Assembly (NCBI GenBank): GCA_025928935.1
Contig: JAICNB010000008.1
Location: 2,456 to 66,455 of the forward strand
Reading direction: 5' to 3'
DNA length: 64,000 nucleotides
Source: Acidimicrobiia bacterium
GTDB lineage: Bacteria > Actinomycetota > Acidimicrobiia > Spongiisociales > ZC4RG35
Positions 49,648-63,024 of this stretch are shown here, in pieces. Every line of letters begins with the position of its first letter. The first letter of the stretch is position 1. The notes under the pieces were generated by a model. That model searched no databases and was not told where the DNA came from. It saw only the letters and a list, made by a program, of their open reading frames with translations. Both the position numbers and the translations under genes were made by a program.

Positions 49648-50583
49648 TCAACCGAATGGAAGAGCCGGCTGGGAGGTGGCTCGTGGCTCTTGCTGTCTCG
49701 ATCGGGATCTTCCACGTGGGTGGCGGGGTAGATAGACCCGGTCGCGGTACAACTCCTCGTAGGTCTCGATGAGCTCGGGATGGGCACCGTTCAACCACCC
49801 CATGAAATGCTCCCGCACACCAGCACGAAGATGGAGAGGGATGGAGTACACCGATCCGGCCCCGGCCTCTCGACAGGCCGCCTCGACCTCGGCCACCTGC
49901 TCCGGCCGATCCGACAAACCCGGGATGATGGGGGCTATCAGCACCCCCGTAGGGACACCGGCCTCACTGAGACGGGCGATCGCCTCCACCCTCCGCAGAG
50001 GGTGGGGTGTGCCGGGCTCGGTCTCCTTCCAGACCACTGGATCGAGCGTGCCGATCGAGAAGCTGACCGTGACTTCCGAATGGCGCGCCGCCTCTGCGAA
50101 GAGATCGATGTCACGCAGGGCCAAGGTCGACTTGGTCAGGATGCTGAACGGGTTGCGTCGCTCGGTCAGCACCTCGAGGATGCCCCGGGTCAATCGGTAT
50201 CGGCCCTCGGCGGGCTGGTAGGGGTCGGTGTTGGTCCCCATCGCGATGGGCGCGCCCGACCACCGGGCCGGTGACGTCTCGGCTCGGATGAGCTCGACGG
50301 CGTTGATCTTGACCACGATCTGGGTGTCGAAGTCCACACCCGTGTCGAGCCCCAGGTATTCGTGGGTGGGCCGGGCGAAGCAATAGACGCATGCGTGGCT
50401 GCAACCGCGGTAGGGGTTGATGGTCCAATCAAAGGGGAGGAAGGTCCCCGGGACGCGGTTGAGGATGGTCTTGGCTTCGATCTCGTGGAACACGAGGCCC
50501 CGGTACTGCCCTCGTCCCGGCACACGGCGGGTCAGTTCGAACAGGCCACCATCTGATGGAGCGTTCCATCTCAGCTCGCTCAT
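49648..50583 (-). CDS. Rv2578c-family (SplB-like) radical SAM DNA repair protein
   Basis: INPYRGCSHACVYCFARPTH, MGTNTDPYQPAEG, ILTKS, EPGTPHP. Confidence 0.9.
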   Translation of the reverse strand: MSELRWNAPSDGGLFELTRRVPGRGQYRGLVFHEIEAKTILNRVPGTFLPFDWTINPYRGCSHACVYCFARPTHEYLGLDTGVDFDTQIVVKINAVELIRAETSPARWSGAPIAMGTNTDPYQPAEGRYRLTRGILEVLTERRNPFSILTKSTLALRDIDLFAEAARHSEVTVSFSIGTLDPVVWKETEPGTPHPLRRVEAIARLSEAGVPTGVLIAPIIPGLSDRPEQVAEVEAACREAGAGSVYSIPLHLRAGVREHFMGWLNGAHPELIETYEELYRDRVYLPRHPRGRSRSRQQEPRATSQPALPFG

Positions 50584-50620: not shown

Positions 50621-50782
50621 GCGGGTCTGCTGAGACAACCTCATCGGATTCTCGGTTCACGTCTCTCATCGTCACCTGCAGCGATGGCTCGGAGGTGCCT
50701 GGGTCGCGGCGACCGACTTGGGGTAGGTGCCCAGATCATGAAATCGGGCCCGGCAAGGCCGCCTTCAGCTCTAACCCGTCGG

Positions 50783-51790
50783 TCAGTCCATTCCATGGCT
50801 GACCACGCGTCGGATCCACTCACTTGCCTCTGGGACCGTTTTTTCCAGGGCTTCCGAAAGGGCGGTGGTCAACGCCAAATGGCTTCGGAAGCCATGCGCG
50901 TCGAGCATATGGCCCTGCCATCGGGAGAAGTCCAGAAGCGGCCGAGGGTCGTCCACGAGCATCGACGCCTCGGTCACCAACAGGGCCGTTGCCAGTTCGG
51001 TTCGCTGTCGAGCCCCCGGTGGCTCGCCGAGGGCGTGAGCGAGAAGGGCCTCGGCCTCGGCCAGAACGGCGTTGTGTCTTTCCATGACCCGTTCCAGCAC
51101 TCCACCCGGGTTCTTGGCTCGGGCTTCGGAGGCATGTACATCGGGCGCCCACGACTCGAGATGGTCGGCGACCTCGCCCGGTGATGCCACCCAGGCGTCC
51201 GCACCCACCCGTTCAGCCCAGATCCCGTTCTCGCCGAACGCTCTCCCTCCCACGAGGACCGGGATTCCGGCGGAGTGGCTCGCCCGGATGGCGTCACGAG
51301 CGCCGAGGAGATGGCTGGTCATGGCGCCTGACAACACCACCGCCGCGGCTGGGTCGAACTCGAGGTACTCCCTCAGATCGGGCGCCAGGACGTTGGCACC
51401 GAGAAAGGTGGTGCGATGGCCCAGATAGAGAAGATGTGCGGCCACCGCCCGAGCCGGCAAGGAATGGCTATCGCCCGGCGTCGTAGCTACGACGACAGCC
51501 GATTCCTTCTCCGGCTGATCCAATGACCCGGTCAACAGTGCGATCACCGTCTCCAGAGTTGCCGTGGCCGCATGCTCCTCGGTGACGAGGTAGTCCCCAG
51601 CCTGCCAGCGCAGGCCGACTTCCCGTTCGGATCTGAGAAGCATGTCGAAGACGACTGTCTCGAAGGGGGTTCCCTCATCGAGGAGGTGGGCCACGAGCCG
51701 GTACACCGAGCCAGAGTCGCCGGCAATGGCCGCGGCGGTGATCCCTAGCTGGATCTCAGAGATTCGTGACTGCTCCATGCGGACCATCAC
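50783..51790 (-). CDS. cobalamin-binding domain protein (B12-binding_2 plus Rossmann B12 domain plus helical C-terminus), no HTH
   Basis: VGLRWQAGDYLVTEEH (W-x9-EH), PGDSHSLP (DxH), FLGANV, VVLS, VLVGGRAF, VGADAW. Confidence 0.85.
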   Translation of the reverse strand: MMVRMEQSRISEIQLGITAAAIAGDSGSVYRLVAHLLDEGTPFETVVFDMLLRSEREVGLRWQAGDYLVTEEHAATATLETVIALLTGSLDQPEKESAVVVATTPGDSHSLPARAVAAHLLYLGHRTTFLGANVLAPDLREYLEFDPAAAVVLSGAMTSHLLGARDAIRASHSAGIPVLVGGRAFGENGIWAERVGADAWVASPGEVADHLESWAPDVHASEARAKNPGGVLERVMERHNAVLAEAEALLAHALGEPPGARQRTELATALLVTEASMLVDDPRPLLDFSRWQGHMLDAHGFRSHLALTTALSEALEKTVPEASEWIRRVVSHGMD

Positions 51791-52545
51791 GTGCTCCTGA
51801 CTTCCCCCGGGTCACGCTGGCGATCTGCCTGTGGCCAGGCATAGACGATGACATTGCTGTCGTATCGAGAGATGCTCGAATCGAATCCCCCACCACAGGT
51901 GACCAGGGTGAGCACAGGCGGCCCACTCCGGCTGAAGATCGCCTCGGTGGGTAGATCGGCTTTCAGGTAGGTCGCCTTGGCCTGCACCGAGAACGTTGCC
52001 TCGCTTCCGTCGTCGAACTGGACCACGATCAGGTCACCCGGCTCGAGCCGGTGCAGATCGAAGAAGACGCCGCGACCTTGTCCCATCAGGTCGACGTGTG
52101 CCGCCAACACGGCCGATCCCGGTTCTCCCGGCGCGGGCCCGTACTCGTACCAACCGACTTCTACGACGTTGTCTGGCACATCCATTTGACCTGTGGCGCG
52201 GTCGACGCCGTGGGGACGGATTTCCGCAGCGACACCGATCGCCTCGATGTTGAGGACTGTTGGCGTTCGCCTTGGATCTTCGGGCGCTTCGAGGGACGGT
52301 CCCTCGTTCACCTGCCACAGCGGGCGAGGGGGCGCTTCCACGGGCTCCGAGTTCGTGGTGGAAGGTGACCTGACGATGGATGACGGCGACGGGGTGGACA
52401 AGGATTGCTCGACGCGTTCCACGTCGCCCAGGGTGGGGTTCTCGGTCTTGGTGAATTCAGCGACGGAAGCGATGGCAAGGCCAATGCCCAGGGCCAGGCC
52501 CAGGAGACCGAGCAGCAACGGCGCGTGAGGGGAAGGTCTCTTCAT
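51787..52545 (-). CDS. class F sortase
   Basis: N-terminal TM, VGWYEYGPAPGEPGSAVLAAHVD, VFFDL, LTLVTCGG, YDSNVIVYA. Confidence 0.92.
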   Translation of the reverse strand: MKRPSPHAPLLLGLLGLALGIGLAIASVAEFTKTENPTLGDVERVEQSLSTPSPSSIVRSPSTTNSEPVEAPPRPLWQVNEGPSLEAPEDPRRTPTVLNIEAIGVAAEIRPHGVDRATGQMDVPDNVVEVGWYEYGPAPGEPGSAVLAAHVDLMGQGRGVFFDLHRLEPGDLIVVQFDDGSEATFSVQAKATYLKADLPTEAIFSRSGPPVLTLVTCGGGFDSSISRYDSNVIVYAWPQADRQRDPGEVRST

Positions 52546-52556
52546 CGCAGGTGGGC

Positions 52557-52584
52557 GAGGGAGGCCCTATCAGGGGCCTCCCTC
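52557..52584. terminator. 11-bp perfect hairpin between DUF4397 and sortase genes
   Basis: GAGGGAGGCCC-TATCAG-GGGCCTCCCTC; no U tract. Confidence 0.6.
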
Positions 52585-52607
52585 ATGATCATGGTCGACT
52601 CGATCGA

Positions 52608-53405
52608 CTATCGGTTCGCCTTGGCCAGGGCCATGGCCCCACCACTGAATGCGATGACGGCGAGGCCCATCAAGACGACGCCGAGCCATGCGCTGTCGGC
52701 AGCCAATCCGGCGGTGCCGGTGGGAACGCCGGTAGGCGCCCCGGCCAGACCGGTCAGAGCGGCGGTCACCACCTGGAAGCTCCCGCCCTCGACCGAACCG
52801 ATCGCATAGGCGATGCTGTTGGTCCCTTCCGCCAGGTCGAGGTCGGCCTCGAAGGCACTGGTCGCCGGGTCGCCGGCAGCGGTGATCTTGATGTTGTAGG
52901 TGTCGGCCGGCACATCGGCGTCGCCGCCCTGACCATTGGTCACGCCGGAGAACACGGCAGAGTCATTGGCCAGGATGTCGACCGGGCCGAAGTCGGCGAG
53001 GTGTCTCGCCGTCACCCGGGCGTTCCCCGCCTCGATCGTCGCGTTGTTCTCGACGAAGACGCCGAGAGTGGGCTCACCGCCCTCCTGCAGGTGGGCGGCG
53101 ATCGTGACCGCTGCCCCTGCCTCGAGGTCGGCCGACCCGCTCAGGGCCGGATCGTCCGCGTCGGGATCGGCCCCCGCGGCATAGATCTCCACTTCGTAGG
53201 ATCCAGCGGGCAAGGGGAGCGGACCGGCCACGTCGCCGTACTGGAACCCCTCGAGGGTCAGTTCGCCGTTGACGTAGACGTCGACATCGAGATCGGGCAC
53301 ACCGTGAACCACGATGACCTGACCTTCGCTCGACTGCGCCATTGCGGCTGTGGCCGGGATTACGGCGAGCAACATGGCGGTGATGAGAAGCATCAGCTTT
53401 CGCAT
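52608..53405 (-). CDS. DUF4397 secreted protein with C-terminal sorting signal
   Basis: Signal peptide AMA, VVHGVPDLDVDVYVNG, RHLADFGPVDI, then PTGVPTG, TM and KANR. Confidence 0.88.
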   Translation of the reverse strand: MRKLMLLITAMLLAVIPATAAMAQSSEGQVIVVHGVPDLDVDVYVNGELTLEGFQYGDVAGPLPLPAGSYEVEIYAAGADPDADDPALSGSADLEAGAAVTIAAHLQEGGEPTLGVFVENNATIEAGNARVTARHLADFGPVDILANDSAVFSGVTNGQGGDADVPADTYNIKITAAGDPATSAFEADLDLAEGTNSIAYAIGSVEGGSFQVVTAALTGLAGAPTGVPTGTAGLAADSAWLGVVLMGLAVIAFSGGAMALAKANR

Positions 53406-53463
53406 TGGGATCTCCTTTACATTCCACGACCTGCGTTTTGTCGGTCGTCTGCTTCGACCGTGT

Positions 53464-53490
53464 TTCGGATCAGGTCGGGAGAATGGATGA
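53464..53490 (-). promoter_or_regulatory. SigK-like ECF promoter
   Basis: Minus strand TCATCC-N16-CCGAA, 58 nt upstream of the DUF4397 ATG. Confidence 0.75.
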
Positions 53491-53507
53491 CCCAGTTGGC
53501 AGGTTTC

Positions 53508-54674
53508 TCAGCGGGAGAAGACCCATTGCTCGACGTTTATTCGGCCGATGCGAAAGCCGGCCTCGCACAAGGTGAGATATAGCTCCCACATCCGACGGAA
53601 CCTCTCGTCGAAGCCGTCTCGCGCCGAGAGCTCTGGCCAGGCATCCTCGAATCGCGACCGCCAGGCAGCCAGGGTGCGGGCGTAGTCGAGGCCGAAGGTC
53701 TCGATCTGGTCGACCTCGAGCCGCACTTTGCGGGCCAAACGCCTCAGCACCTTCGGCGCGGGCAGCTGCCCGCCGGGGAAGATGTATTGCTGAATGAAAT
53801 CGGCGCGGGAGCGGTAACGCTCCCACTCCGAGTCATCGATCGTGATGACCTGCATCGCGGCCTTGGCTCCCGGGCGAAGCCTGCGGGCGATGGCGGTGAA
53901 CAGCCCCGGCCAATGCGACTCGTCCACCGACTCGATCATCTCGATCGAGACGATGGCGTCGAACTCCCCTTCCACTTCGCGGAAGTCCTGGACCCGAACG
54001 TCGACCCGGTTCGTCAGACCGCGCTCGGCGATGCGTTTGCGGGCGTGGTCGGCCTGCTCGGTCGACAGGGTGATGGCGACCACATCGCATTCCCTCTCCG
54101 AAGCGGCATATGCGGCGAAGCCACCCCAACCGCAGCCAATCTCGAGAACACGCATGCCAGGCTCGATCCCGGCGTGATCGGCCATCGACCGGTACTTGTT
54201 CTTCTGAGCTTCGTCGAGCGAATCGTTTGGTCGTCTGAATCGCGCCGAGGAGTAGGTCATGGCTTCGTCGAGCCAGGACTCGTAGAACTCGTTGCCCAGG
54301 TTGTAATGGTCGTTCATCGAGCGCACCCGGGGATGTCGGCGCTCCGGACGTATCCGTTGCCACACCTTGCGCAAGGGACGGGTAGCCCTGGCAACGGGAT
54401 GGTCGAACCATGCGACCCGGTTGGCCGCCCCCCATTCGACGAGCGCCGAGAGGTCGGGTGTGTCGATGCGACCATCCATGTGTGCTTCGGTGAATCCGAT
54501 GAGGCCGGAGCGGACGATGTCCACCACGGCCGAATAGCTGGAGACCGTCAATTCTGCCGACGGCGAACCGGCTCCGATCCGGTGGACCCGGCCATCGGGC
54601 AGGGTCAGCGTGAGTCGACCCGTCCGGGCGAGACGCGAGAGGACCCAGACCCCGAGACCGCCGCCCAAGGTCAT
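53508..54674 (-). CDS. cyclopropane-fatty-acyl synthase family methyltransferase (UfaM/UfaA1-like)
   Basis: HYNLGNEFY, MTYSSA, LEIGCGWG, SIEMIE, DFIQQYIFPGG, DYARTL, RMWELYL..CEAGF. Confidence 0.9.
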   Translation of the reverse strand: MTLGGGLGVWVLSRLARTGRLTLTLPDGRVHRIGAGSPSAELTVSSYSAVVDIVRSGLIGFTEAHMDGRIDTPDLSALVEWGAANRVAWFDHPVARATRPLRKVWQRIRPERRHPRVRSMNDHYNLGNEFYESWLDEAMTYSSARFRRPNDSLDEAQKNKYRSMADHAGIEPGMRVLEIGCGWGGFAAYAASERECDVVAITLSTEQADHARKRIAERGLTNRVDVRVQDFREVEGEFDAIVSIEMIESVDESHWPGLFTAIARRLRPGAKAAMQVITIDDSEWERYRSRADFIQQYIFPGGQLPAPKVLRRLARKVRLEVDQIETFGLDYARTLAAWRSRFEDAWPELSARDGFDERFRRMWELYLTLCEAGFRIGRINVEQWVFSR

Positions 54675-55465
54675 GTCGAGAGGGCCGCTCGACCGACGAT
54701 GGTCACCGTTTCCTTCGCCGGCTCCGGCCGCTTTCGATATTCGGCGCCCTTCAACCAGAGGCGGAGGGCCTGCCAGTGGATCCCGACGATGACGTGCAAG
54801 GTCACCAGGGGGTGGGCGAGGAACAGCTTCAACAGGTTGAAATCACTCATCGGGAGCTTTCTCAAGCGAAGACCGGCACGGAACATCGGGCCCTCGGAAT
54901 CGGTCTGTTCGATCGCCAGTGACAAGTGATCTCCGGGCACGGTCATGGTGAAGTGATATGTCTGGTCCATGTCGTTGAAAGGCGAGACATGGAGTCTCTT
55001 CTCGACGGCATGACGCAGGTCGGATGAACCTCGGATGGGCGCCACGTAGATGTGCCGATCGCCGAAGGTATTCCTCACCTCGTGGATCACCGCCCGTAGC
55101 TCGTCTTCTGGCCCGTAGCAATACCACACGCTGATGGGATTGAACACATAACCGAGGACTCTGGGAAGCGTCAGGAGCCTCACGCGTCCCCCTTCGAGGT
55201 TCACCCCCGCCCGAGCCAGGGTCGCTTCGACCCATGGCCTGAGATCGCCGACGTTCTCGGCTCCGTGATCGGAAGGATCGAATCCGTAGAGATTGCGCCG
55301 GCCGACGGAGAAGAGCCTCAGATCCTTCGCCAGGTCCTCCAGCTCGGCCAGGTCGAACATGGCGTAGTAGATGCGGTATTCGAAATCGTGATGGAAGGGC
55401 TGGAGCCGGGTGTGCCTGACTTTGCCCCGATACAGCGCCGATCGGAGGCTGCTCATGCCGCTCAT
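54671..55465 (-). CDS. DUF1365 family protein (UfaO-like)
   Basis: LYRGKVRHTR, DHG, PRVLGYVFNPISVWYC, EVRNTFGDRH, KRLHVSPF, IHWQALRLWLKG. Confidence 0.92.
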   Translation of the reverse strand: MSGMSSLRSALYRGKVRHTRLQPFHHDFEYRIYYAMFDLAELEDLAKDLRLFSVGRRNLYGFDPSDHGAENVGDLRPWVEATLARAGVNLEGGRVRLLTLPRVLGYVFNPISVWYCYGPEDELRAVIHEVRNTFGDRHIYVAPIRGSSDLRHAVEKRLHVSPFNDMDQTYHFTMTVPGDHLSLAIEQTDSEGPMFRAGLRLRKLPMSDFNLLKLFLAHPLVTLHVIVGIHWQALRLWLKGAEYRKRPEPAKETVTIVGRAALST

Positions 55466-56763
55466 GCCGCCTCCAGCTCCTCTCTCATCGCCGACTCGCC
55501 CCGCTCGAAGGTGGCGTGCCACGGAGCCGGGCTGCCCAGCGACGCGGCCACTTCGAGCCCCGACCTGAGACCATCTTCGTGGAAGCCATAGCCGAGGTAG
55601 GCGCCGGCGAACCAGGTGTTGTTCCGACCCTGGATGGCAGCGATGGCTCGTTGCGCTCCCGGGGTGCGAAGGTCGAACTGGGGATGGGCGTAGATGAAGG
55701 TGCGATGGGTCAGCGCCGGGTTCGGGTCCCGTAGAGGGTTCAAGGAGACGAACAGCGGGGCCTCGGTCTCGAGGGACTGAAGGCGGTTCATCCAGTAGGT
55801 CACCGAGGCGGGCCCGCCCCTGGCCGACTCGGAGGTCATGGCGTTCCAGCTCGACCACAGCCGCCGGTTGCGCGGCATGAGGTGCGGATCGCTGTGGAGG
55901 ACGGCGAGGTTGGGCCGGTAGCCGATCGCCCCCAACGCCGACCGTTCCTGGTCGGTTGCGTCGTCACCCAGAATGCGCCGGGCCTGATCGGAGTGCGTCG
56001 CGATGATCACTTGGTCGAAGTGACTGCGATCCTCTCTCGTCTCCACGATGACACCGGCCCCGCTGCGGATCACCCGTCTCACCTCGGCGCCCGTCCTGAT
56101 CACGTCAGAGAAACCCGCGATGAGACGTTCCACGTACTCCCGGCTCCCACCCGTCACGGTCCGCCAGCGAGGTCTGCCCGCGATCTCGATCAGCCCGTGG
56201 TTGTGGAGGAAGGTGAGGATCGACCGAGCGGGGAAACCGCCGATCTCGCCGAGGCCGGTCGACCAGATCGCTCCCGTCATCGGGTACACATAGTCCTCCA
56301 AGAACGCCGCTGAGAACCCGTGACGTCGCAGGAGATCTTCGATGGTCTCACCACTCGCCGGCTGCAGACTCGCCCCGATGCGGCGGAATCGATTGATGTC
56401 CGCAAGCATCCCCAAGAACCTCGGCTTGGCGAGGTTGCGCGGCTCGGCCAGCATTCCCGAGAGGCTGGCCGCGTACTCGAATCTACGATCGACCGAGAAC
56501 GCGAACGACATGTCACTCGCCTGTGTAGGCACGGCCAGCGCCCGAAAGAGCTGGGTCAGGTTCGGATAGGTCACCTCGTTGTAGACGATGAAGCCGGTAT
56601 CGACCGCGACCGAGCCCTGCGGCGTGTCCACCTCGACGGTGTTCGTGTGCCCGCCGATCCTGTCGTCCGACTCGTACACGGTCAATTCGTGCTCGTGCGA
56701 GAGCGCCCATGCAGCTCCCAGCCCTGAGATGCCGGTCCCGATGATTGCGATTCGTTGTCCCAT
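55462..56763 (-). CDS. FAD-dependent oxidoreductase/desaturase (UfaD/Rv0449c-like)
   Basis: IGTGISGL, GGHTNT, VDTGFIVYN..YPN, GGSREY, ATHSDQA, SSWN, TYWMNRLQ, YAHP, GFHEDG. Confidence 0.92.
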   Translation of the reverse strand: MGQRIAIIGTGISGLGAAWALSHEHELTVYESDDRIGGHTNTVEVDTPQGSVAVDTGFIVYNEVTYPNLTQLFRALAVPTQASDMSFAFSVDRRFEYAASLSGMLAEPRNLAKPRFLGMLADINRFRRIGASLQPASGETIEDLLRRHGFSAAFLEDYVYPMTGAIWSTGLGEIGGFPARSILTFLHNHGLIEIAGRPRWRTVTGGSREYVERLIAGFSDVIRTGAEVRRVIRSGAGVIVETREDRSHFDQVIIATHSDQARRILGDDATDQERSALGAIGYRPNLAVLHSDPHLMPRNRRLWSSWNAMTSESARGGPASVTYWMNRLQSLETEAPLFVSLNPLRDPNPALTHRTFIYAHPQFDLRTPGAQRAIAAIQGRNNTWFAGAYLGYGFHEDGLRSGLEVAASLGSPAPWHATFERGESAMREELEAA

Positions 56764-56771
56764 GCCTCCCA

Positions 56772-56798
56772 TTCGGACCCGAGGGGGTGGGCGGATTG
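56772..56798 (-). promoter_or_regulatory. SigK-like ECF promoter
   Basis: Minus strand CAATCC-N16-CCGAA, 8 nt before ATG 56763. Confidence 0.75.
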
Positions 56799-56832
56799 CA
56801 TCGAAGGTGGCTCCGAAGGCGGGACGCCGGGG

Positions 56833-56859
56833 GCATCCAGATCGACGAGCGGCTTCGAA
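56833..56859 (+). promoter_or_regulatory. SigK-like ECF promoter, divergent
   Basis: GCATCC-N16-TCGAA about 120 nt upstream of the acyltransferase. Confidence 0.5.
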
Positions 56860-56981
56860 CTCGGGCAAGAGGGTGATCCCTCGACGATCCGATTTGGGTT
56901 TTCGTGACGGGAGCGCCGGCTACACGGTGCCCGTCGTGGTGGATGTCCCCGGGGAGGCATGACAATGAGACAAATGGACCG

Positions 56982-57989
56982 ATGAGCCCGATGTTGCGTG
57001 GTCCCCTTCTCCGGAGGCTGGTGACAGTCCCAAGCACGTACTTGTTGCTGGTGGCCGTGACCGTCCTCCTGCCGATCCTGCTCCCTCTCGCCGCTCTGAA
57101 CGACCTCGTCCGATGGCTGGCGAATCGAACACCTGCCATGAGCCTGAGGATGCTGACCTTCGGATGGCTGTACCTGGTGGGAGAGAGTTGGGCGATCGTC
57201 GCGCTCGCCATCCTGGGTGCCCTTCCCGAGAGCGCCTCCATGAGGCTCACCTACGGAGCGCAGCGTGCGTGGCTCGATTGGAACTTCGATGCACTTCGGC
57301 TCGCCTTCTCGCTCGACTTCACCGTCGAGGGAGGAGAAGAGGTCGCGCCCGGCCCAATCCTCCTCCTCTCGCGACACGCCTCGATGATCGACACCATGCT
57401 GCCCGGCCGTTACGTCGTCAGACCGCACCGGATAAAGCTCCGGTATGTGCTGAAGAAGGAGCTGCTGGTCGACCCCGCACTCGATATCGGGGGCAACCGC
57501 CTCCCCAACTACTTCATCGACCGGGCGGGGAATGCAGCTACAGAGATGGCCGCCTTGCGAGACCTGGCACGCTCACTAGACGTGGACGAGGGCGTCCTCA
57601 TCTATCCCGAGGGAACCCGGTACACCGAAAAGAAGCGCGTCGAATACTCGGCACGATGGGAGCAAGCAGGCGGGGCGCTGGCCGAGATCGCCTCGAGTTA
57701 CAGGCGAGTACTGCCTCCCAGGCCGGGAGGGACCCTGGCTCTGCTCGATGCGAGCACTGCAGACGTGGTCGTCCTGGCACACCGTGGCCTGGAGGGGTTC
57801 GCCCGGTTGTCAGACATCTGGAACGGACGTCTTGTCGGTTCCGAGGTCCAACTTCGCTTCTGGCGGGTTCCCCGCCCGCAGATTCCGGATGGTGACGCCG
57901 AGCGGACCGAGTGGCTCTTTCGTCTCTGGGCCGAGGTCGACGCCTGGGTGGTGGGGGAGGAAGGCAGGGCCGCAGGCGGGTCTGGCTGA
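56982..57989 (+). CDS. PlsC-family acyltransferase
   Basis: SRHASMID (Hx4D), YVLKKEL, FIDR, YPEGTR, PRPGG. Confidence 0.88.
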   Translation: MSPMLRGPLLRRLVTVPSTYLLLVAVTVLLPILLPLAALNDLVRWLANRTPAMSLRMLTFGWLYLVGESWAIVALAILGALPESASMRLTYGAQRAWLDWNFDALRLAFSLDFTVEGGEEVAPGPILLLSRHASMIDTMLPGRYVVRPHRIKLRYVLKKELLVDPALDIGGNRLPNYFIDRAGNAATEMAALRDLARSLDVDEGVLIYPEGTRYTEKKRVEYSARWEQAGGALAEIASSYRRVLPPRPGGTLALLDASTADVVVLAHRGLEGFARLSDIWNGRLVGSEVQLRFWRVPRPQIPDGDAERTEWLFRLWAEVDAWVVGEEGRAAGGSG

Positions 57990-58015
57990 TCGGTCAGGCG
58001 ACTCTCATCCAACCC

Positions 58016-58936
58016 TCATCCGACCAGCACATCGCTGCCGGTCAAGGTCACCAACTCATCCCAAAGCCGGGCTCGATCCGCGGCCGTCTCCCTGGTGGAG
58101 TCGATCAGATGTGTCGGCGCGACGGCGCGGTCGAACCAGAACCGACCGGTGGTGGCAGCGGGTTCTGCCGCTGCGGCCAGCCAGACAATCGTGTCCGCAC
58201 CTTGTTCCGGGGTCCTGAGAAACGGCTTCATCATCATGTTGAAGGTAGGCAGCGACTCGGCGACGCCGGCCGTCGCCGCCCACCCCGGGTGCATCGAGTG
58301 GAAGACGATGCGCTGGTCGGGAAACCGCTCGGCCCACATCTCGGTCACGATCACCTGACCTCTCTTGCTGTGGGCATATGCGGCGGTTCCGCTGTACTCC
58401 CTGTTGGTGAACTGGAGGTCAGCGGGTCGGATCCTCTCCGAGTACATGCCTCCGGAGCTGACGCTGATCACTCGGGCCGGAGGCGACTCGAGCAGCCTCG
58501 GGATCAGCAGATTCGTGAGCAGGAATTGGCCGGCGAGGTTGGTCGCCATGGTCTTCTCCAATCCTTCGCCGGTTACCTCCCGCTGAGGAAGCAAGACCCC
58601 GACGTTGTTCACAAGTGAGTCGATGCGGGGCTCTGTCTCGAGGATCCGCCTCCCCAGCTCCCTGACCTCGTCCAGCAGGCTCAGGTCTGCCACTTCGATG
58701 GAGGGCGTGCCACCGACGCTTGCCTTGGCCTCATGCAGCTTCTCCTCGCTCCTGCCCACCATGATCACGCGTGCGCCCATCGCACCCAATCGCCGGCTGA
58801 CCGCCAGGCCGAGTCCTCCGGTGGCGCCAGTGACGACAACAGTCTGACCGGTCAGGTCTGTCTGGAGCGGCTCGAAGCTACGGGCATGTAGGTGATACCC
58901 GATGTTGGTGAACGACGCGATCTGAAGGCGGTTCAC
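58016..58936 (-). CDS. short-chain dehydrogenase/reductase (DHRS12-like)
   Basis: TGATGGLG, NNVG, VSSGGMY, YAHSKR, MHPGWAAT, QGADTIVWL. Confidence 0.9.
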   Translation of the reverse strand: MNRLQIASFTNIGYHLHARSFEPLQTDLTGQTVVVTGATGGLGLAVSRRLGAMGARVIMVGRSEEKLHEAKASVGGTPSIEVADLSLLDEVRELGRRILETEPRIDSLVNNVGVLLPQREVTGEGLEKTMATNLAGQFLLTNLLIPRLLESPPARVISVSSGGMYSERIRPADLQFTNREYSGTAAYAHSKRGQVIVTEMWAERFPDQRIVFHSMHPGWAATAGVAESLPTFNMMMKPFLRTPEQGADTIVWLAAAAEPAATTGRFWFDRAVAPTHLIDSTRETAADRARLWDELVTLTGSDVLVG

Positions 58937-59403
58937 CGGTCGAGGGCCCTGGCCAGCCCGTCGAGGGCGTCTTTCCCGACCTTTTCCAGGATGGGCCTCA
59001 TCAGGGGCCGGATGAATCTGAACAGGTTGCGGAACGTGAGATCTGCCGCGTAGTCGATCACAGTCATGTTGTCTTGACTGGCGAACGTGATCTCGTCGAC
59101 GGCGTGCAGCTTCTCACCATCGCCGACGAGTACCACGCGGTGGTCGGGCTGATAGACGGTGATCTCGTAGATCATCGGGGTCGTCCCTGCGCCGAATTTG
59201 ACCTCCAGTGCGAAACGGGTGCCTAGCCCTATCGGGCCCTCGGTGACCTTTCTCGACGCCACCACGCCGGGATCCCAGTCTTCGATGTTGGAGAAGTCGG
59301 CGGTGTATTCGAACGCCTCTGGTTGGGGCCGGGTCACCGAGCGACGCTCGACGAGGCGCACCGCCCCTCCAGGCGGTCGCCTGTTGTTGGTCTGTTGGCT
59401 CAT
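58933..59403 (-). CDS. SRPBCC/START family protein
   Basis: AFEYTADFSNIEDWDPGV, GTRF, AVDEITF, IDYAA; overlaps the SDR start. Confidence 0.85.
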   Translation of the reverse strand: MSQQTNNRRPPGGAVRLVERRSVTRPQPEAFEYTADFSNIEDWDPGVVASRKVTEGPIGLGTRFALEVKFGAGTTPMIYEITVYQPDHRVVLVGDGEKLHAVDEITFASQDNMTVIDYAADLTFRNLFRFIRPLMRPILEKVGKDALDGLARALDR

Positions 59404-59411
59404 GACACTTA

Positions 59412-59438
59412 TTCGTCACCGCCTGTGGTGACGGATGA
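59412..59438 (-). promoter_or_regulatory. SigK-like ECF promoter
   Basis: Minus strand TCATCC-N16-ACGAA, 8 nt before ATG 59403. Confidence 0.75.
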
Positions 59439-59488
59439 GCCCGCCCTCCTTTTCGGCCTTGTCCACTGGCGGGTAAGTGTTCGGTCTC

Positions 59489-59992
59489 ATGCACTCCGAG
59501 CCAGCAAGCGATCGCACGCACCGAAGTTCGTTGTCCAACTTGGCCGCTCTCGTGATCTTCGGCGGGGCCACGGCGCTGGTGGCCGGGCTCGGCTCATGGA
59601 TTACCGCAGCGTCGGTGGATAGCCAATGGTTCGATGCGCTGGCGAAGCCCGCCTTCTATCCGCCCTCGGCCACCTTCGGGATCGTCTGGACGATCCTGTA
59701 TGTGCTGATCGCGCTTTCCGTGTGGATCGCCTGGCGAGGTGGCGGTCGGGCCGAGATGCTCATCCCGTGGTTCATCCAGCTGGCGTTGAACCTTGGTTGG
59801 ACGATGGCGTTCTTCGGTGCCAGAGCACCAGAGATCGGGATGGTTGTGATCATCGCCCTGCTATTAGCGGCGATCTGGACGGCCGCGGCAATGTGGCCAC
59901 ACAGCCGATTCGCCGCCTTGATGTTCGTGCCCTACATCTTGTGGGTGGCTTTCGCCGCGGTGCTCAACTGGTCGATCGTTGCCTTGAACTAG
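59489..59992 (+). CDS. tspO: TspO/MBR tryptophan-rich sensory protein
   Basis: WFDALAKPAFYPP, FGIVWTILY, QLALNLGW..AFF, PYILWVAFA. Confidence 0.92.
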   Translation: MHSEPASDRTHRSSLSNLAALVIFGGATALVAGLGSWITAASVDSQWFDALAKPAFYPPSATFGIVWTILYVLIALSVWIAWRGGGRAEMLIPWFIQLALNLGWTMAFFGARAPEIGMVVIIALLLAAIWTAAAMWPHSRFAALMFVPYILWVAFAAVLNWSIVALN

Positions 59993-60052
59993 CGGGCAAG
60001 CATCAGAAAGGCTCCAACTCCGGTTGGATCAGCCGGCGACGCCGGTGAGTAG

Positions 60053-61300
60053 TTGGCTGGTAAGTGGCCAGCTCGAGCGGCCCAGCCTCTCACGGGGCGG
60101 GGGAACGAGATCTACGGTTGCCCCAATGTCGTCTCCCGCATCGGTACCGGCTTGATCTCGGCATTCTTCTTCACCTGGTTTGCAGCCGCGTGCCTCTGGA
60201 CGGTCAACGCGCTCCGCCGGCCGATTCCGCCGGGTAAGCCCTTCCCACCACTTTGGCTACCAGCGATGCTCGTGTCCGAGCTCGCTCCGGCGTACTTCCT
60301 TCTCAGGATCGCCGTCGCCGCGTTGTTCCTGACTCTCGGGGCGGCAACCCTGGCCATCGGACAAGCCGGCATGGTGCTCTTCGTGCTCTCCGAGATCGGG
60401 CTGATCGTGCTGATGTCGAGAACGACTCGAGCGTCCAGAGCTACCGGTCACCCGCCTTCCCTGCTCACCCTCTTCAAAGTCTGGGAACGGTGGCCGAAGG
60501 GTGTCGAACACCATGTCGAGGTGCCCTACTGGGGCTCCCTGACACTCGACATCTATGCCCGACGCAATCTGAATATGGCGCCGACGCTCATCTACGTGCA
60601 CCCGGGCTCGTGGATGCGAGGGAGACCGGGTCGACAATCACGGGCGATGTTCCATCGTCTCGCCAAGATCGGCTGGGTGATCCTGGATATCAGATATCCA
60701 CTGTCGCCGGAGGCGACCTTTCCCGAGCACCTGATCGGTGTGAAGCGGGCGATCGCATGGGCGCGTGAAGAGGGTGCCGGCTATGGCATCGATGGCAACC
60801 GCATCGCCATATCCGGTGGTTCCTCGGGGGCACATCTCGCCGCCCTCGCTGCATTGACCGCCCGCAATCGCGATCTGCAGACGGGGTTTCAGAAAGTCGA
60901 CGTCGAAGTGGCCGCCTGTGTTCCCTTCTACGGCATCTACGACCTCCTGGTCCGGAATCCCACCCGATATGACTGGCCGTTCATAGCGCAAAAGGTGATG
61001 AAGAAGCCCGCCTCGGAGGATCCCTACCTCTACTCACTCGGATCACCCATCGATCAGGTCCACGCGGAAGCGCCACCCTTCTTCGTCATTCATGGAGAGT
61101 TCGACTCGGTGGTCCTTCCGGCCGAGTCCGAGCACTTCGTCGAGGCTCTGAGGCAAGCGGACGTAGATACCTCTTACTTCGAGGTGCCCGGGGCACAACA
61201 CGGCTTCGATGCGGTGGCAAGTCTCCGCACCCGCGCAGTGGCAGCGCTGTGCACCGAGTGGCTGGAGAAGAGCGTCAACGGTCTCAGGCAGAACCGATAG
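60053..61300 (+). CDS. membrane-anchored alpha/beta hydrolase (HSL-type esterase)
   Basis: N-terminal TMs, LDIY, HPGSW, YPLSP..FP, GGSSGAHL, HGEFD, HGFD; true start probably later (TTG 60152). Confidence 0.85.
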   Translation: MAGKWPARAAQPLTGRGNEIYGCPNVVSRIGTGLISAFFFTWFAAACLWTVNALRRPIPPGKPFPPLWLPAMLVSELAPAYFLLRIAVAALFLTLGAATLAIGQAGMVLFVLSEIGLIVLMSRTTRASRATGHPPSLLTLFKVWERWPKGVEHHVEVPYWGSLTLDIYARRNLNMAPTLIYVHPGSWMRGRPGRQSRAMFHRLAKIGWVILDIRYPLSPEATFPEHLIGVKRAIAWAREEGAGYGIDGNRIAISGGSSGAHLAALAALTARNRDLQTGFQKVDVEVAACVPFYGIYDLLVRNPTRYDWPFIAQKVMKKPASEDPYLYSLGSPIDQVHAEAPPFFVIHGEFDSVVLPAESEHFVEALRQADVDTSYFEVPGAQHGFDAVASLRTRAVAALCTEWLEKSVNGLRQNR

Positions 61301-61369
61301 GAATTCGGCCTGCCAGACGCCGGTTTGGCAATCGATGTGCCTCTGGACGGGGTGCCAGCCACACCCGAA

Positions 61370-61396
61370 TGATCCATTCCGGCCTCCGCTGACGAA
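61370..61396 (+). promoter_or_regulatory. SigK-like ECF promoter
   Basis: TGATCC-N16-ACGAA, 6-9 nt before GTG/ATG 61403-61406. Confidence 0.72.
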
Positions 61397-61402
61397 TAAC
61401 AG

Positions 61403-62863
61403 GTGATGGCATCACCCAAGATCCTTGTCACCGGGGCCACCGGCTACATAGGCGGTCGTCTCGTTCCCCGGCTTCTCGAGTCCGGCTTCGAAGTTCGCTG
61501 CGTGACCCGAGATCCGGCCAAGCTGGAGGGAGTCTGGTGGCATCACCGCGCCGAGGTCGTCGTCGGAGATCTTCTCGACCCGGAATCACTGGACGTCGTA
61601 TTCGATGGCATCGATAGGGCCTTCTATCTGGTCCACTCGATGGATGGATCGAGTGGGGGCTTCGACGAGCGTGATCGCCGCGCCGCAGCCAACTTCAGCG
61701 CCGCAGCTGACCGAGCCGGGCTACGCCGGATCGTCTATCTGGGCGGGCTGGGAGAGGGCGATCTGAGCCCTCATCTCGCCAGTCGACAGGAGGTAGGCCA
61801 GGTCCTCGGCTCGGGCGCCACCCCGGTGACCGAGCTCCGGGCGGCGGTCATCATCGGGTCGGGCTCGGTGTCCTTTGAGATGCTGCGGTACCTCACCGAG
61901 GTCCTACCCCTGATGGTGACCCCAAAGTGGGTGCGGACCCTTTGTCAGCCGATCGCCATCCGCGACGTCCTCGAGATCCTGTTGGCCTCGGTGATGGAGG
62001 ATGGGCCCAATGTCATACACGAGATAGGCGGGCCCGACCGACTCAGCTACGAGGAGATGATGCGGGTCTACGCAGAAGTAGCCGGTCTTCCCCGGCGGCG
62101 GATCATCAGGGTGCCGGCCCTGAGCCCCCGTCTTTCGAGCCACTGGATCGGTCTGGTCACCCCACTGCCCACCGGGGTCGCCAAGCCGCTCGTCGACAGT
62201 CTCACCGTCGAGGTGACCGTCGACGACAACTCCTTTGCCAAGAGGGTCGCTGGGCCCCTCATCGGATACCGCGACGCCGTCTCTCGTGCCCTGACAAGAG
62301 TCACCGACCTCGACGTTGCCACCCGTTGGACAGGAGCCTCCTCAGATCCGGCGGTCCCTTTTCCTGCCGATCCGGACTGGTCGGGAGGCACCGTCGAGAT
62401 CGACGAGCAGATCGTCAGCAGCACCGCCCGCCCCGAGGACCTGTTCTGGGCGTTCAGCCGCATCGGCGGCGACATCGGCTACTACGCGATGAACTGGGCG
62501 TGGAAGGCGCGCGGCCATCTCGACTCGCTCGTCGGCGGTGTCGGCCTGAGACGGGGGCGTCGTCATCCCGAGGAGCTGCGGAAAGGCGAGTCAGTCGACT
62601 TCTGGCGGGTTGGTTCCGTAGTACCCGGCCGGTCGTTGGACCTCTACGCCGAGATGAGGGTGCCCGGAGAGGCATGGCTCTCCTTCCGGGCGGATGAGAC
62701 GCCGAACGGGAGAGACGGCTCGGTCCTCACGCAGACCGCCCTGTTCCGTCCGCGGGGACTGCTCGGGCGTCTGTACTGGTGGGCGATGTTTCCATTCCAT
62801 CTATTCATCTTCAAGCGAACGGCCAAGCGCATCGTCGACATTGCCGAACACCGGCATTACTAG
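61403..62863 (+). CDS. YbjT-like atypical SDR with C-terminal DUF2867
   Basis: VTGATGYIGGRL, YLVHSM, HLASR, IIGSGSVSFEM, QPIAI, RIGG, DFWRV, AEMRVPGEAWL, PRGLLGRLYW. Confidence 0.92.
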   Translation: MMASPKILVTGATGYIGGRLVPRLLESGFEVRCVTRDPAKLEGVWWHHRAEVVVGDLLDPESLDVVFDGIDRAFYLVHSMDGSSGGFDERDRRAAANFSAAADRAGLRRIVYLGGLGEGDLSPHLASRQEVGQVLGSGATPVTELRAAVIIGSGSVSFEMLRYLTEVLPLMVTPKWVRTLCQPIAIRDVLEILLASVMEDGPNVIHEIGGPDRLSYEEMMRVYAEVAGLPRRRIIRVPALSPRLSSHWIGLVTPLPTGVAKPLVDSLTVEVTVDDNSFAKRVAGPLIGYRDAVSRALTRVTDLDVATRWTGASSDPAVPFPADPDWSGGTVEIDEQIVSSTARPEDLFWAFSRIGGDIGYYAMNWAWKARGHLDSLVGGVGLRRGRRHPEELRKGESVDFWRVGSVVPGRSLDLYAEMRVPGEAWLSFRADETPNGRDGSVLTQTALFRPRGLLGRLYWWAMFPFHLFIFKRTAKRIVDIAEHRHY

Positions 62864-62872
62864 GACGTCGTT

Positions 62873-62957
62873 ATCAGATCAAACGGCGCAACATCAAAGC
62901 CTCCATCAATCGCTCGCCCATGGCGCGACCTCAGGTCGAGCATGTGTTCGGGTCAAG
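62873..62957 (-). pseudogene. degenerate copy of the promoter, SOS box and first codons of the Rv2578c-like gene
   Basis: 62933-62957 matches 50597-50621 at 23/25; similarity continues over GCTCGCCCATGG and a frameshifted PFDL (vs LFEL) remnant. Confidence 0.7.
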
Positions 62958-63024
62958 GGGAGGAGCGGATGCACCCGGCGTGGCCGGCGGGCAGACTGCG
63001 ATGGGTCACACGGGAGGGTGATCG

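Follow-up and report, generated by a model that had tools for sequence, protein, structure and literature searches.

A 12-kb gene block of a soil Acidimicrobiia bacterium as the proposed main target set of a SigK-type ECF sigma factor that may be gated by a photocobilin

We analysed a 64,000-nucleotide (nt) stretch of DNA (the window; positions 2456-66455 of contig C27) from the genome of a soil Acidimicrobiia bacterium (G000: 3.08 Mb, 144 contigs, 65.5% G+C, estimated completeness of 98.5%) and found in it a 12-kb block of genes in which several transcription units share one promoter motif. We propose that a single SigK-type extracytoplasmic function (ECF) sigma factor, encoded on another contig (C82), has its main set of targets in this block, and that this sigma factor is gated by a photocobilin, a B12 protein of a photoreceptor family whose genes lie both in the block and next to the sigma gene; we give this reading as a whole, gating included, a probability of about 0.5. 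We regard the system as a SigK/RpoE-type ECF regulon that is arranged in a new way, a variant of the SigK and RpoE-ChrR regulons.

The original prediction made on this window had described five sites of the form ATCC-N17-CGAA in the block as SigK-type ECF promoters. These five sites are indeed present (P1 to P5 in Table 1), all of them are intergenic and each is directed into a gene, and three of them had been said to stop 6-9 nt short of a start codon, which they do, with gaps of 8, 8 and 6 nt. Four sites are strong and one is weaker, and the form that they take in the block is (T/C)(C/G)ATCC(G/A)-N15/16-CGAA(T). The bare ATCC-N17-CGAA pattern is not rare in the window, which holds six matches against 3.13 expected, a number that 10 of 100 shuffles also reach; five of the six fall within 12 kb. 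The case for promoters therefore rests on further tests. Using genes from an ad hoc, crude codon-usage caller (3,109 genes, 93% of the genome), we found that 20 of the 103 genomic matches with a spacer of 17 are intergenic, against an average of 10.4 for the eleven other spacers between 12 and 23, and that 10 of them are both upstream of a gene and co-oriented with it, against a mean of 4.2 for the other spacers. We also derived a weight matrix from 12 sites in the loci of relatives only and scanned both strands of the 3.08-Mb genome with it, which placed P4 first, P1 second, P2 fourth and P5 sixth; the third rank went to a site before a DUF378 gene on C82, near the candidate sigma gene, and the fifth to an intragenic match. 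In addition, the start of an open reading frame (ORF) of at least 70 codons lies exactly 8 nt past CGAA in 9 of 23 distinct sites and 6-9 nt past it in 13 of the 23, and this fixed 8-nt gap suggests leaderless mRNAs. The mRNA made from P2 is probably leaderless, and P1 is followed by a leader of ~58 nt with an AAGGAG upstream of the DUF4397 gene.

One could argue that the sites are chance matches or repressor operators rather than promoters, and the lack of significant enrichment of the bare pattern in the window as well as the 83 of 103 genomic spacer-17 matches that lie inside genes would fit such a view. It nevertheless appears extremely improbable, considering the ranks given by the relatives-only matrix, the bipartite -35/-10 organisation with a fixed spacer length and a variable spacer sequence, the fixed 8-nt distance to start codons and the strand, which matches the downstream gene every time for a pattern that is not palindromic. 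As to the random-frequency check suggested with the original prediction, the bare count in the window is near chance, but the intergenic excess at spacer 17 and the matrix ranks argue for promoters. Altogether, we have little doubt that the promoters are real, and the motif behaves as the SigK-type ECF promoter that it had been taken for in matrix rank, spacer, conservation and start distance. CGTA-type and spacer-1 variants added nothing, only 1 of 26 matches of the CGTA type in G000 being intergenic.

The motif is also found upstream of orthologous genes in relatives. It precedes the DUF4397 or sortase gene in G150, G174 and G033, as well as in each of the nine loci from families f5/f6 (there with CGTA as the -10 element), the SRPBCC-SDR (short-chain dehydrogenase/reductase) pair in G182, G174 and G033, the amine-oxidase operon in G174 and G243, and the DUF378 gene in G074 and one further metagenome-assembled genome. 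It also precedes sigK itself, consistent with autoregulation, in G174, G033, G050, G007, G082, G090, G134 and G229. In G174, which belongs to the same genus, sigK and rskA, the gene of the membrane anti-sigma factor RskA, are part of the island, where they separate the ufa operon from the acyltransferase gene, and a plus-strand site drives sigK-rskA; P3 of the window occupies the equivalent position. This sister species shows the undivided form of the regulon. The synteny that had been proposed as a check stood for the motif, which precedes orthologous genes, but not for TspO, which is not syntenic in G174. A motif-like string (CTCATCCGCTC...CGCCGTACAA) also recurs inside sigK-like ORFs, always in the same position, at ~15 loci of L207-L225 (families f4-f6, f44 and f1; for example L207:1735-1765), where it encodes a conserved (V/L)IRSE..AR(R) and may reflect either coding conservation or an internal promoter for rskA.

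The block had been said to hold no sigma gene and to be driven in trans, and this is upheld, since the best SigK match of the genome and the motif sites that flank it lie on C82. The genome has 32 Sigma70_r2 matches, and the C82 sigma factor is the top match to the SigK model NF007228, with 144 bits against 92 bits for the next one, a lead of 52 bits. Its best match in the PDB is the SigK of Mycobacterium tuberculosis (4nqw, 1.5e-23) and its second the RpoE of Rhodobacter sphaeroides (2q1z, 5.1e-16). Two motif sites flank its gene: the DUF378 site of rank 3 mentioned above and a weak one (rank 38) before a fasciclin/MPT83-like gene. Orthologues of this sigma factor were found at 51-60% identity, and the motif upstream of orthologous sigK genes ties motif and sigma factor together. 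It is therefore likely, with some margin for doubt, that the C82 sigma factor reads the promoters of the block. A scan for related loci based on the sigma factor mostly returned non-orthologous ECF sigma factors.

With 32 Sigma70_r2 matches in the genome, the motif might also be read by another ECF sigma factor, either the one paired with the sole RskA_C protein (C82:81273-82472) or the one at C27:31583-32104. The RskA_C-paired sigma factor is the second-best match to the SigK model (92 bits), and ECF18/19-type sigma factors have anti-sigma types in common (PMC7826278). Its best PDB match, however, is SigW and not SigK, and no motif was seen upstream of it, whereas the DUF378 and fasciclin sites flank the sigma gene at C82:57266 instead, the orthologues of which have the motif upstream of their own genes in eight relatives. 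We thus regard a different reader as very unlikely.

The C82 sigma factor lacks some of the usual controls of a SigK protein. Since it has no cysteine in its 183 residues, the redox disulphide of the M. tuberculosis SigK cannot apply to it; natural cysteine-less SigK proteins are functional (PMC7509140). No autoregulatory site was found upstream of its gene, the best motif score in the region shared with the neighbouring photocobilin gene being -1.9. TATAAT/TATATG-like boxes occur on both strands of this intergenic region (C82:57818-57921), from which an ECF site is absent, and this suggests that the sigma-photocobilin pair is constitutively expressed; in relatives whose sigK has only RskA, an ECF site lies upstream of sigK. 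Moreover, no RskA is encoded beside the C82 sigma gene: the sole PF10099 match of the genome belongs to another ECF sigma factor, the three zf-HC2 matches are all on other contigs, and a tblastn search of G000 with the RskA of G050 gave no match. The search for a SigK/RskA pair elsewhere in the genome, which had been recommended, thus yielded the SigK-like sigma factor but not an RskA partner for it. In most relatives, rskA overlaps the end of the sigK-like gene (for example G050 L200:782-1492(-)).

RskA is also absent in G074, G182 and several other lineages, and a B12/photocobilin gene lies beside sigK in most of them. We compared 40 sigK loci, of which 13 are without RskA, one of these being cut at a contig end: among the 12 that could be assessed, 10 have an adjacent B12/photocobilin gene, against 8 of the 27 with RskA. 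This sample is biased, because 10 of the 40 loci were fetched via a photocobilin query, and the related genomes are not independent. Among 20 loci of the class to which G000 belongs, 12 have a photocobilin gene at most 4.2 kb away from the sigma gene, and in 9 the two genes are immediate neighbours.

The photocobilin gene of the window overlaps the sortase gene by 4 nt and is therefore the third gene of the P1 operon, the first two genes of which, for DUF4397 and sortase, are separated by a 62-nt gap without overlap. Its product matches the photocobilin structures 8j2w/8j2x of the PDB (E 5.4e-31 over residues 18-315 of 335), the match reaching the globin-like C-terminal domain, a part that no Pfam model covers. 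It carries PF02607 and PF02310, and the residues of its Wx9EH and DxH motifs (W57, E67, H68, D102 and H104) do not vary among 17 homologues. The B12 protein had been put forward, with TspO, as a sensor of the system: it does belong to a photoreceptor family, but it is encoded in an operon behind the sortase gene and is an output of the regulon, which may also sense.

We then predicted the complex of the sigma factor and the photocobilin encoded beside it on C82 using alignments of 12 sigma factors and 17 photocobilins, together with three controls. The predicted complex scored 0.64, while the best control scored 0.00; this value is a model confidence, and as such the prediction supports binding. 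Of 80 solved complexes, 58 attain the 0.64 mark, as do 2 of 110 mismatched pairs, a calibration that holds only roughly since custom alignments were used. At least 89% of the contacts are common to the runs, and the partner has a pLDDT (predicted local distance difference test) of at least 88. We know of no solved complex between a sigma factor and a photocobilin-type protein, which makes it unlikely that the model merely reproduced a known structure. According to the model, residues 37-86 and 119-181 of the sigma factor, corresponding to regions 2 and 4, would contact residues 2-40, 52-61 and 84-88 of the photocobilin, corresponding to its N-terminal helices. This predicted geometry resembles that of an anti-sigma domain, to which the photocobilin has no sequence relation. 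Considering that the N-terminal bundle carries W57, E67 and H68 over the upper face of B12, there would be a possible route for photolysis to release the sigma factor.

In the mechanism that we propose, the N-terminal helical bundle of the photocobilin, which caps the upper ligand of B12, would hold the sigma factor between regions 2 and 4 in the dark, as an anti-sigma factor does, until light-driven B12 chemistry frees it. The freed sigma factor would turn on the lipid-remodelling and envelope genes, and also the operon-encoded copy of the photocobilin, so that inhibition would be restored by negative feedback. For us, the chances that the photocobilin gates the sigma factor by direct binding are even; the stronger proposal, that it is a light-gated anti-sigma factor that fully replaces RskA in this lineage, is more tentative. 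Should this hold, it would be the first demonstrated case of a B12/bilin photoreceptor with a direct action on a sigma factor, and light would be an input of a SigK-type regulon, with furan-fatty-acid synthesis (and heliorhodopsin in relatives) under such control. Stand-alone photocobilins would gain a function, which has been called "less clear", with action via protein-protein interaction being suggested (PMC10979010). In the available parts of the literature on ECF sigma/anti-sigma factors, cobalamin photoreceptors, photocobilin and photoglobin, no sigma-photocobilin link was found, and the supplementary neighbourhood tables of PMC7826278, PMC10979010 and PMC8717448 may list such links. G000 can be seen as a natural simplification, with a sigma factor that has neither RskA nor autoregulation and only a photocobilin kept beside its gene. 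It offers a small clonable set (one sigma factor, one or two photocobilins and four promoters) with which the action of light on an ECF sigma factor via a B12 protein could be probed.

The same promoters and the same sigma factor could also operate with the photocobilins as outputs only, like heliorhodopsin in relatives; the trigger would then be, for example, envelope or oxidative damage, and in the RskA-less genome the sigma factor would be controlled through the level at which it is expressed or through some factor that is not recognised. Several observations weigh against the reading that we propose, and some of them speak for such an arrangement. The photocobilin gene has its own motif site in G033 and follows a motif in the operon of the window. 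Canonical RskA (PF10099 plus zf-HC2) comes right after sigK in 27 of the 40 loci, including the same-genus G050 and G174, and 8 of these 27 also have a B12 gene, so that RskA suffices as a regulator in most lineages; since most relatives keep it, the photocobilin is not a general partner of sigK and may be a target only. Among the 30 loci selected by their sigma factor, a B12 gene lies beside sigK in 3 of 5 without RskA and in 7 of 24 with it, which is a weak difference. The score of the complex is a model confidence rather than a measurement, and a PF01126 heme oxygenase, which would supply biliverdin, was not found in G000. As to the promoters and their reader, P3 (rank 29, score 14.5) and the fasciclin site are weak matches to the relatives-only matrix, the C82 sigma factor scores 145.1 bits, under the curated SigK cut-off of 226 for NF007228, though this is its best NCBIfam model, and one metatranscriptome contig (X19, 52698-53774) spans P1. 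The signal of SigK-RskA has furthermore been called "obscure" (PMC9861118).

Against the photocobilins being outputs only, the predicted complex passes whereas its controls score 0.00, and the C82 photocobilin gene is not behind a motif but shares with the sigma gene an intergenic region with TATAAT-like boxes. The adjacent B12 gene in 10 of 12 RskA-less loci points the same way, within the limits of a biased sample. In addition, anti-sigma factors commonly sit in their own regulons, so that being an output does not exclude being a regulator. We consider it possible, though rather improbable, that the photocobilins are outputs only. In that case, the block would still show which genes make up a SigK/RpoE-like photo-oxidative stress regulon beyond mycobacteria and proteobacteria. 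The idea that the photocobilin is a general replacement for RskA was dropped because of the 27 loci with RskA, several of which come from genomes that also have a photocobilin.

Among known systems, the SigK-RskA system of M. tuberculosis (ECF19; Rv0449c-Rv0444c, mpt70/mpt83/dipZ) resembles the one proposed here in that it gives the best structural and family match to the C82 sigma factor, in that the putative targets of the latter include an amine-oxidase/DUF1365/CFA (cyclopropane fatty acid) synthase operon and a fasciclin gene, and in that sister species have RskA right after the sigma factor and the sigma operon is autoregulated in relatives. The promoters of G000 resemble CCATCC-N16-CCGAAT, reportedly the SigK consensus of Veyrier et al. 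in 2008. SigK-binding sites are described as conserved across Actinobacteria (PMC7509140). The sigma factor of G000 differs in that it has neither RskA nor cysteines, stays under the SigK model cut-off and is encoded by a gene that is unlinked from most of its targets and not autoregulated; the DUF4397-sortase-photocobilin, SRPBCC-SDR, DUF2867 and DUF378 units of G000, and heliorhodopsin in relatives, are additions.

The RpoE-ChrR system of R. sphaeroides (ECF11) and its Pseudomonas syringae counterpart provide the second-best structural match, a -35 element of GATCC/CATCC with a similar spacer, and the same enzyme families in the core regulon, with UfaD (RSP1091), UfaO (RSP1090), UfaM/cfaS and an SDR. 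This core singlet-oxygen regulon lies behind TGATCC-N16-CGTA and includes the SDR RSP1087 (PMC5507510), phrB is another member of it, and other families of the order of G000 use CGTA as the -10 element, as RpoE does. By contrast, the -10 element of G000 is CGAA, there is no ChrR-type partner (ZAS plus cupin) beside its sigma factor, and no PF03441 photolyase was found in its genome.

The photocobilins of G000 have near full-length homology and B12 residues in common with SasPcob (8J2W/8J2X) and AbDPcob (8J2Y) (Zhang et al. 2024, PMC10979010) and with the photoglobin-B12 module (PMC8717448), and they are of the stand-alone form. They differ in that their conserved neighbour and predicted partner is an ECF sigma factor, the published partners being STAS/SpoIIE partner-switching proteins and enzyme domains in the portions available to us, and their bilin binding is only putative. 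The DNA-binding repressor CarH and the CrtJ/PpsR-binding proteins AerR/PpaA likewise use a CarH-type B12 module to couple light to transcription, and in Streptomyces, LitR controls the ECF sigma factor LitS. The G000 photocobilin differs from these in that it has no DNA-binding domain and that its proposed target would be the sigma factor itself, in an anti-sigma-like manner. AerR, which likewise lacks a DNA-binding domain, is a precedent for a B12 protein that works through its binding to a transcription factor (PMC9144470). A B12 protein that holds a sigma factor as an anti-sigma factor was not found in the accessible parts of the literature on B12 photoreceptors and ECF sigma factors. Finally, CarQ-CarR of Myxococcus xanthus is similar in that an ECF sigma factor turns on photoprotection under light (PMC8156234), but it involves an unrelated sigma group, a membrane anti-sigma factor responding to light/singlet oxygen and carotenoid genes as targets rather than lipid remodelling.

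Induction of the block by light or singlet oxygen is what we infer from its gene content and neighbours, and light or photo-oxidative stress is, somewhat better than evenly, our estimate of the physiological trigger. In three relatives, a heliorhodopsin gene (PF18761, ~1e-100) starts 8 nt past the motif (L066:9696-10469(+), L063:7758-8534(-) and L082:8219-8995(+)). Heliorhodopsin is present in 62 of 121 genomes of the order, and [CG]ATCC[AG]-N15/16-CG[AT]A lies at most 150 nt upstream of its gene in 20 of 30 loci (L166-L195), for a background of 12 matches in 206,622 nt. These promoters have CGAA in family f1 and mostly CGTA, the -10 element of RpoE-ChrR, in families f3-f7. The sigma factor is found at E<=1e-25 in 19 of the 20 genomes with a heliorhodopsin motif, against 6 of the 10 without it; the tally of 76 of 121 from the sigma genome search includes G202 and G206, which are flagged unpublished and on which nothing else here depends. 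The regulon bears on the purpose of heliorhodopsin in relatives, the function of which is described as "unclear" (PMC7771536), and on how it is switched on there; the accessible parts of the literature on heliorhodopsin and sigma factors held no link between the two. In Mycobacterium kansasii, mpk83/mpk70, which are fasciclin genes, are induced by light, as is a phrB-tspO locus (PMC9861118). G000 itself has two photocobilin genes, though neither a heliorhodopsin nor a PF03441 photolyase was found in genome-wide searches.

DNA near-identical to that of the window occurs in soil and rhizosphere metagenome runs from several studies. In addition, Logan contigs from four soil metatranscriptome runs cover the DUF4397, ufa, SDR-SRPBCC and DUF2867 genes at 95-100% likeness; such contigs show occurrence in RNA libraries only and carry no information on starts, strand or levels. 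Two of them, each from a different study, stop at 53447 and 53445, at a distance of 17-19 nt past the CGAA of P1. The radical-SAM gene and most of tspO and of the esterase gene have no contig cover, which is not evidence either way. Exactly at 59209, in the SRPBCC gene, contigs of three metatranscriptome runs, which stem from two studies, come to an end, and this could reflect strain variation or an assembly break.

Nearly all the strong target promoters of the G000 sigma factor are concentrated in this one block, together with a complete ufaD/ufaO/ufaM-like operon. The gene list of the original prediction was confirmed by Pfam and NCBIfam (Table 1), and its ufa-like genes match UfaD (FAD amine-oxidase-like), UfaO (DUF1365) and UfaM (CFA-synthase-like) domain for domain. 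They form one translationally coupled operon, to which a furan fatty acid role may be attributed by family only; the UfaM-like protein falls under the cut-off of every NCBIfam CFA synthase model. In R. sphaeroides, UfaD (RSP1091, an FAD desaturase described as NAD/FAD-binding and phytoene-desaturase-like), UfaO (RSP1090, DUF1365) and UfaM (a SAM methylase) jointly make a methylated furan fatty acid (PMC7380195). The sortase scores 139.9 bits with the class F model NF033748, under its cut-off of 166, and the C-terminus of the DUF4397 protein, with a conserved GVPTGTAGL, a hydrophobic stretch and basic residues in the four orthologues compared, looks like a sorting signal.

That all these genes form one regulon, as had been proposed, is largely supported for the motif-bearing units but unsupported for tspO and the esterase gene, and the acyltransferase site is weak. 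As had been noted, no motif lies directly before tspO or the esterase gene, and we found none upstream of them or of the Rv2578c-family radical-SAM gene even with a degenerate pattern or spacers of 16-18. TspO was found by tblastn in 0 of 135 related loci screened. In G150 and G033, the esterase and acyltransferase genes sit next to each other in divergent orientation. The acyltransferase gene, which P3 probably drives, adjoins sigK or regulon genes in G150, G174, G100, G242, G238 and G070, and the DUF2867 gene adjoins sigK or photocobilin genes in G033, G180 and G112.

Table 1. Promoter sites and genes of the block and of the sigma locus (positions are those of the window unless a contig is named)
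Feature	Position	Strand	Details
P1	53464..53490	-	TCATCCATTCTCCCGACCTGATCCGAA; TCATCCA-N15-TCCGAA
P2	56772..56798	-	CAATCCGCCCACCCCCTCGGGTCCGAA; AATCCG-N15-TCCGAAT; ATG 8 nt past CGAA
P3 (weaker)	56833..56859	+	GCATCCAGATCGACGAGCGGCTTCGAA; CATCCA-N16-CGAA; 44 nt upstream of GTG 56904
P4	59412..59438	-	TCATCCGTCACCACAGGCGGTGACGAA; TCATCCG-N15-GACGAAT; ATG 8 nt past CGAA
P5	61370..61396	+	TGATCCATTCCGGCCTCCGCTGACGAA; TGATCCA-N15-GACGAAT; GTG 6 nt and ATG 9 nt past CGAA
SigK-like ECF sigma factor, 183 aa	C82:57266-57817	-	best SigK match in genome
Second photocobilin	C82:57922-58914		divergent from sigma gene; ~50% identical to window copy
Photocobilin-family protein	50783..51790	-	B12-binding_2, B12-binding and globin-like C-terminal domain
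Sortase, nearest class F	51787..52545	-	PF04203, 4.5e-21
DUF4397 secreted protein	52608..53405	-	PF14344, 1.8e-31
CFA-synthase-like SAM methylase, UfaM/UfaA1-like	53508..54674	-	PF02353, 8.5e-82
DUF1365 protein, UfaO-like	54671..55465	-	PF07103, 4.8e-82; 4-nt overlap with both neighbours
FAD amine-oxidase-like protein, UfaD-like	55462..56763	-	PF01593, 1.3e-24
PlsC-type acyltransferase	56904..57989	+	PF01553, 9.7e-11; start 56904 or 57021
Short-chain dehydrogenase	58016..58936	-	PF00106, 8.6e-28; 4-nt overlap with SRPBCC gene
SRPBCC (Polyketide_cyc2) protein	58933..59403	-	PF10604, 4.7e-14
TspO	59477..59992	+	PF03073; regulon membership not supported
BD-FAE / alpha-beta hydrolase esterase	60053..61300	+	PF20434; without site
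NAD(P)-binding (NmrA/SDR-like) protein with DUF2867	61403..62863	+	PF11066, 3.7e-32; PF13460
Rv2578c-family radical-SAM protein	49648-50583	-	just beyond block; distantly like spore photoproduct lyase

Some further observations concern the surroundings of the block and other motif-like sites. The gap that follows the DUF2867 gene holds a motif-like site whose spacer is shorter by one base (TGCATCCG...CCCGAACAC; 62944-62973(-)) and which is directed antisense into the 3' end of that gene. Weaker motif-like sites occur at C8:8794-8818(-), before a DUF1990-like gene that is divergent from a CrtI-like oxidoreductase gene, at C139:8109-8133(-), before a WhiB-like gene, and at C2:2000-2024(+), between rplA and rplJ; they were not counted as regulon members because of their lower scores or the lack of a gene in range. 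A DUF1990 homologue is found near the sigK island of G182. On C82, a tRNA-like sequence (C82:56270-56345) lies between the gene of a 270-aa membrane protein without Pfam match and the fasciclin promoter. A scan for terminators and sigma-70 promoters gave counts at chance level, and the only sigma-70-like site in it is that of the radical-SAM gene, a TTGACC-17-TATGGT at 50620-50592(-), without an ECF site, which ends 8 nt upstream of the ATG.

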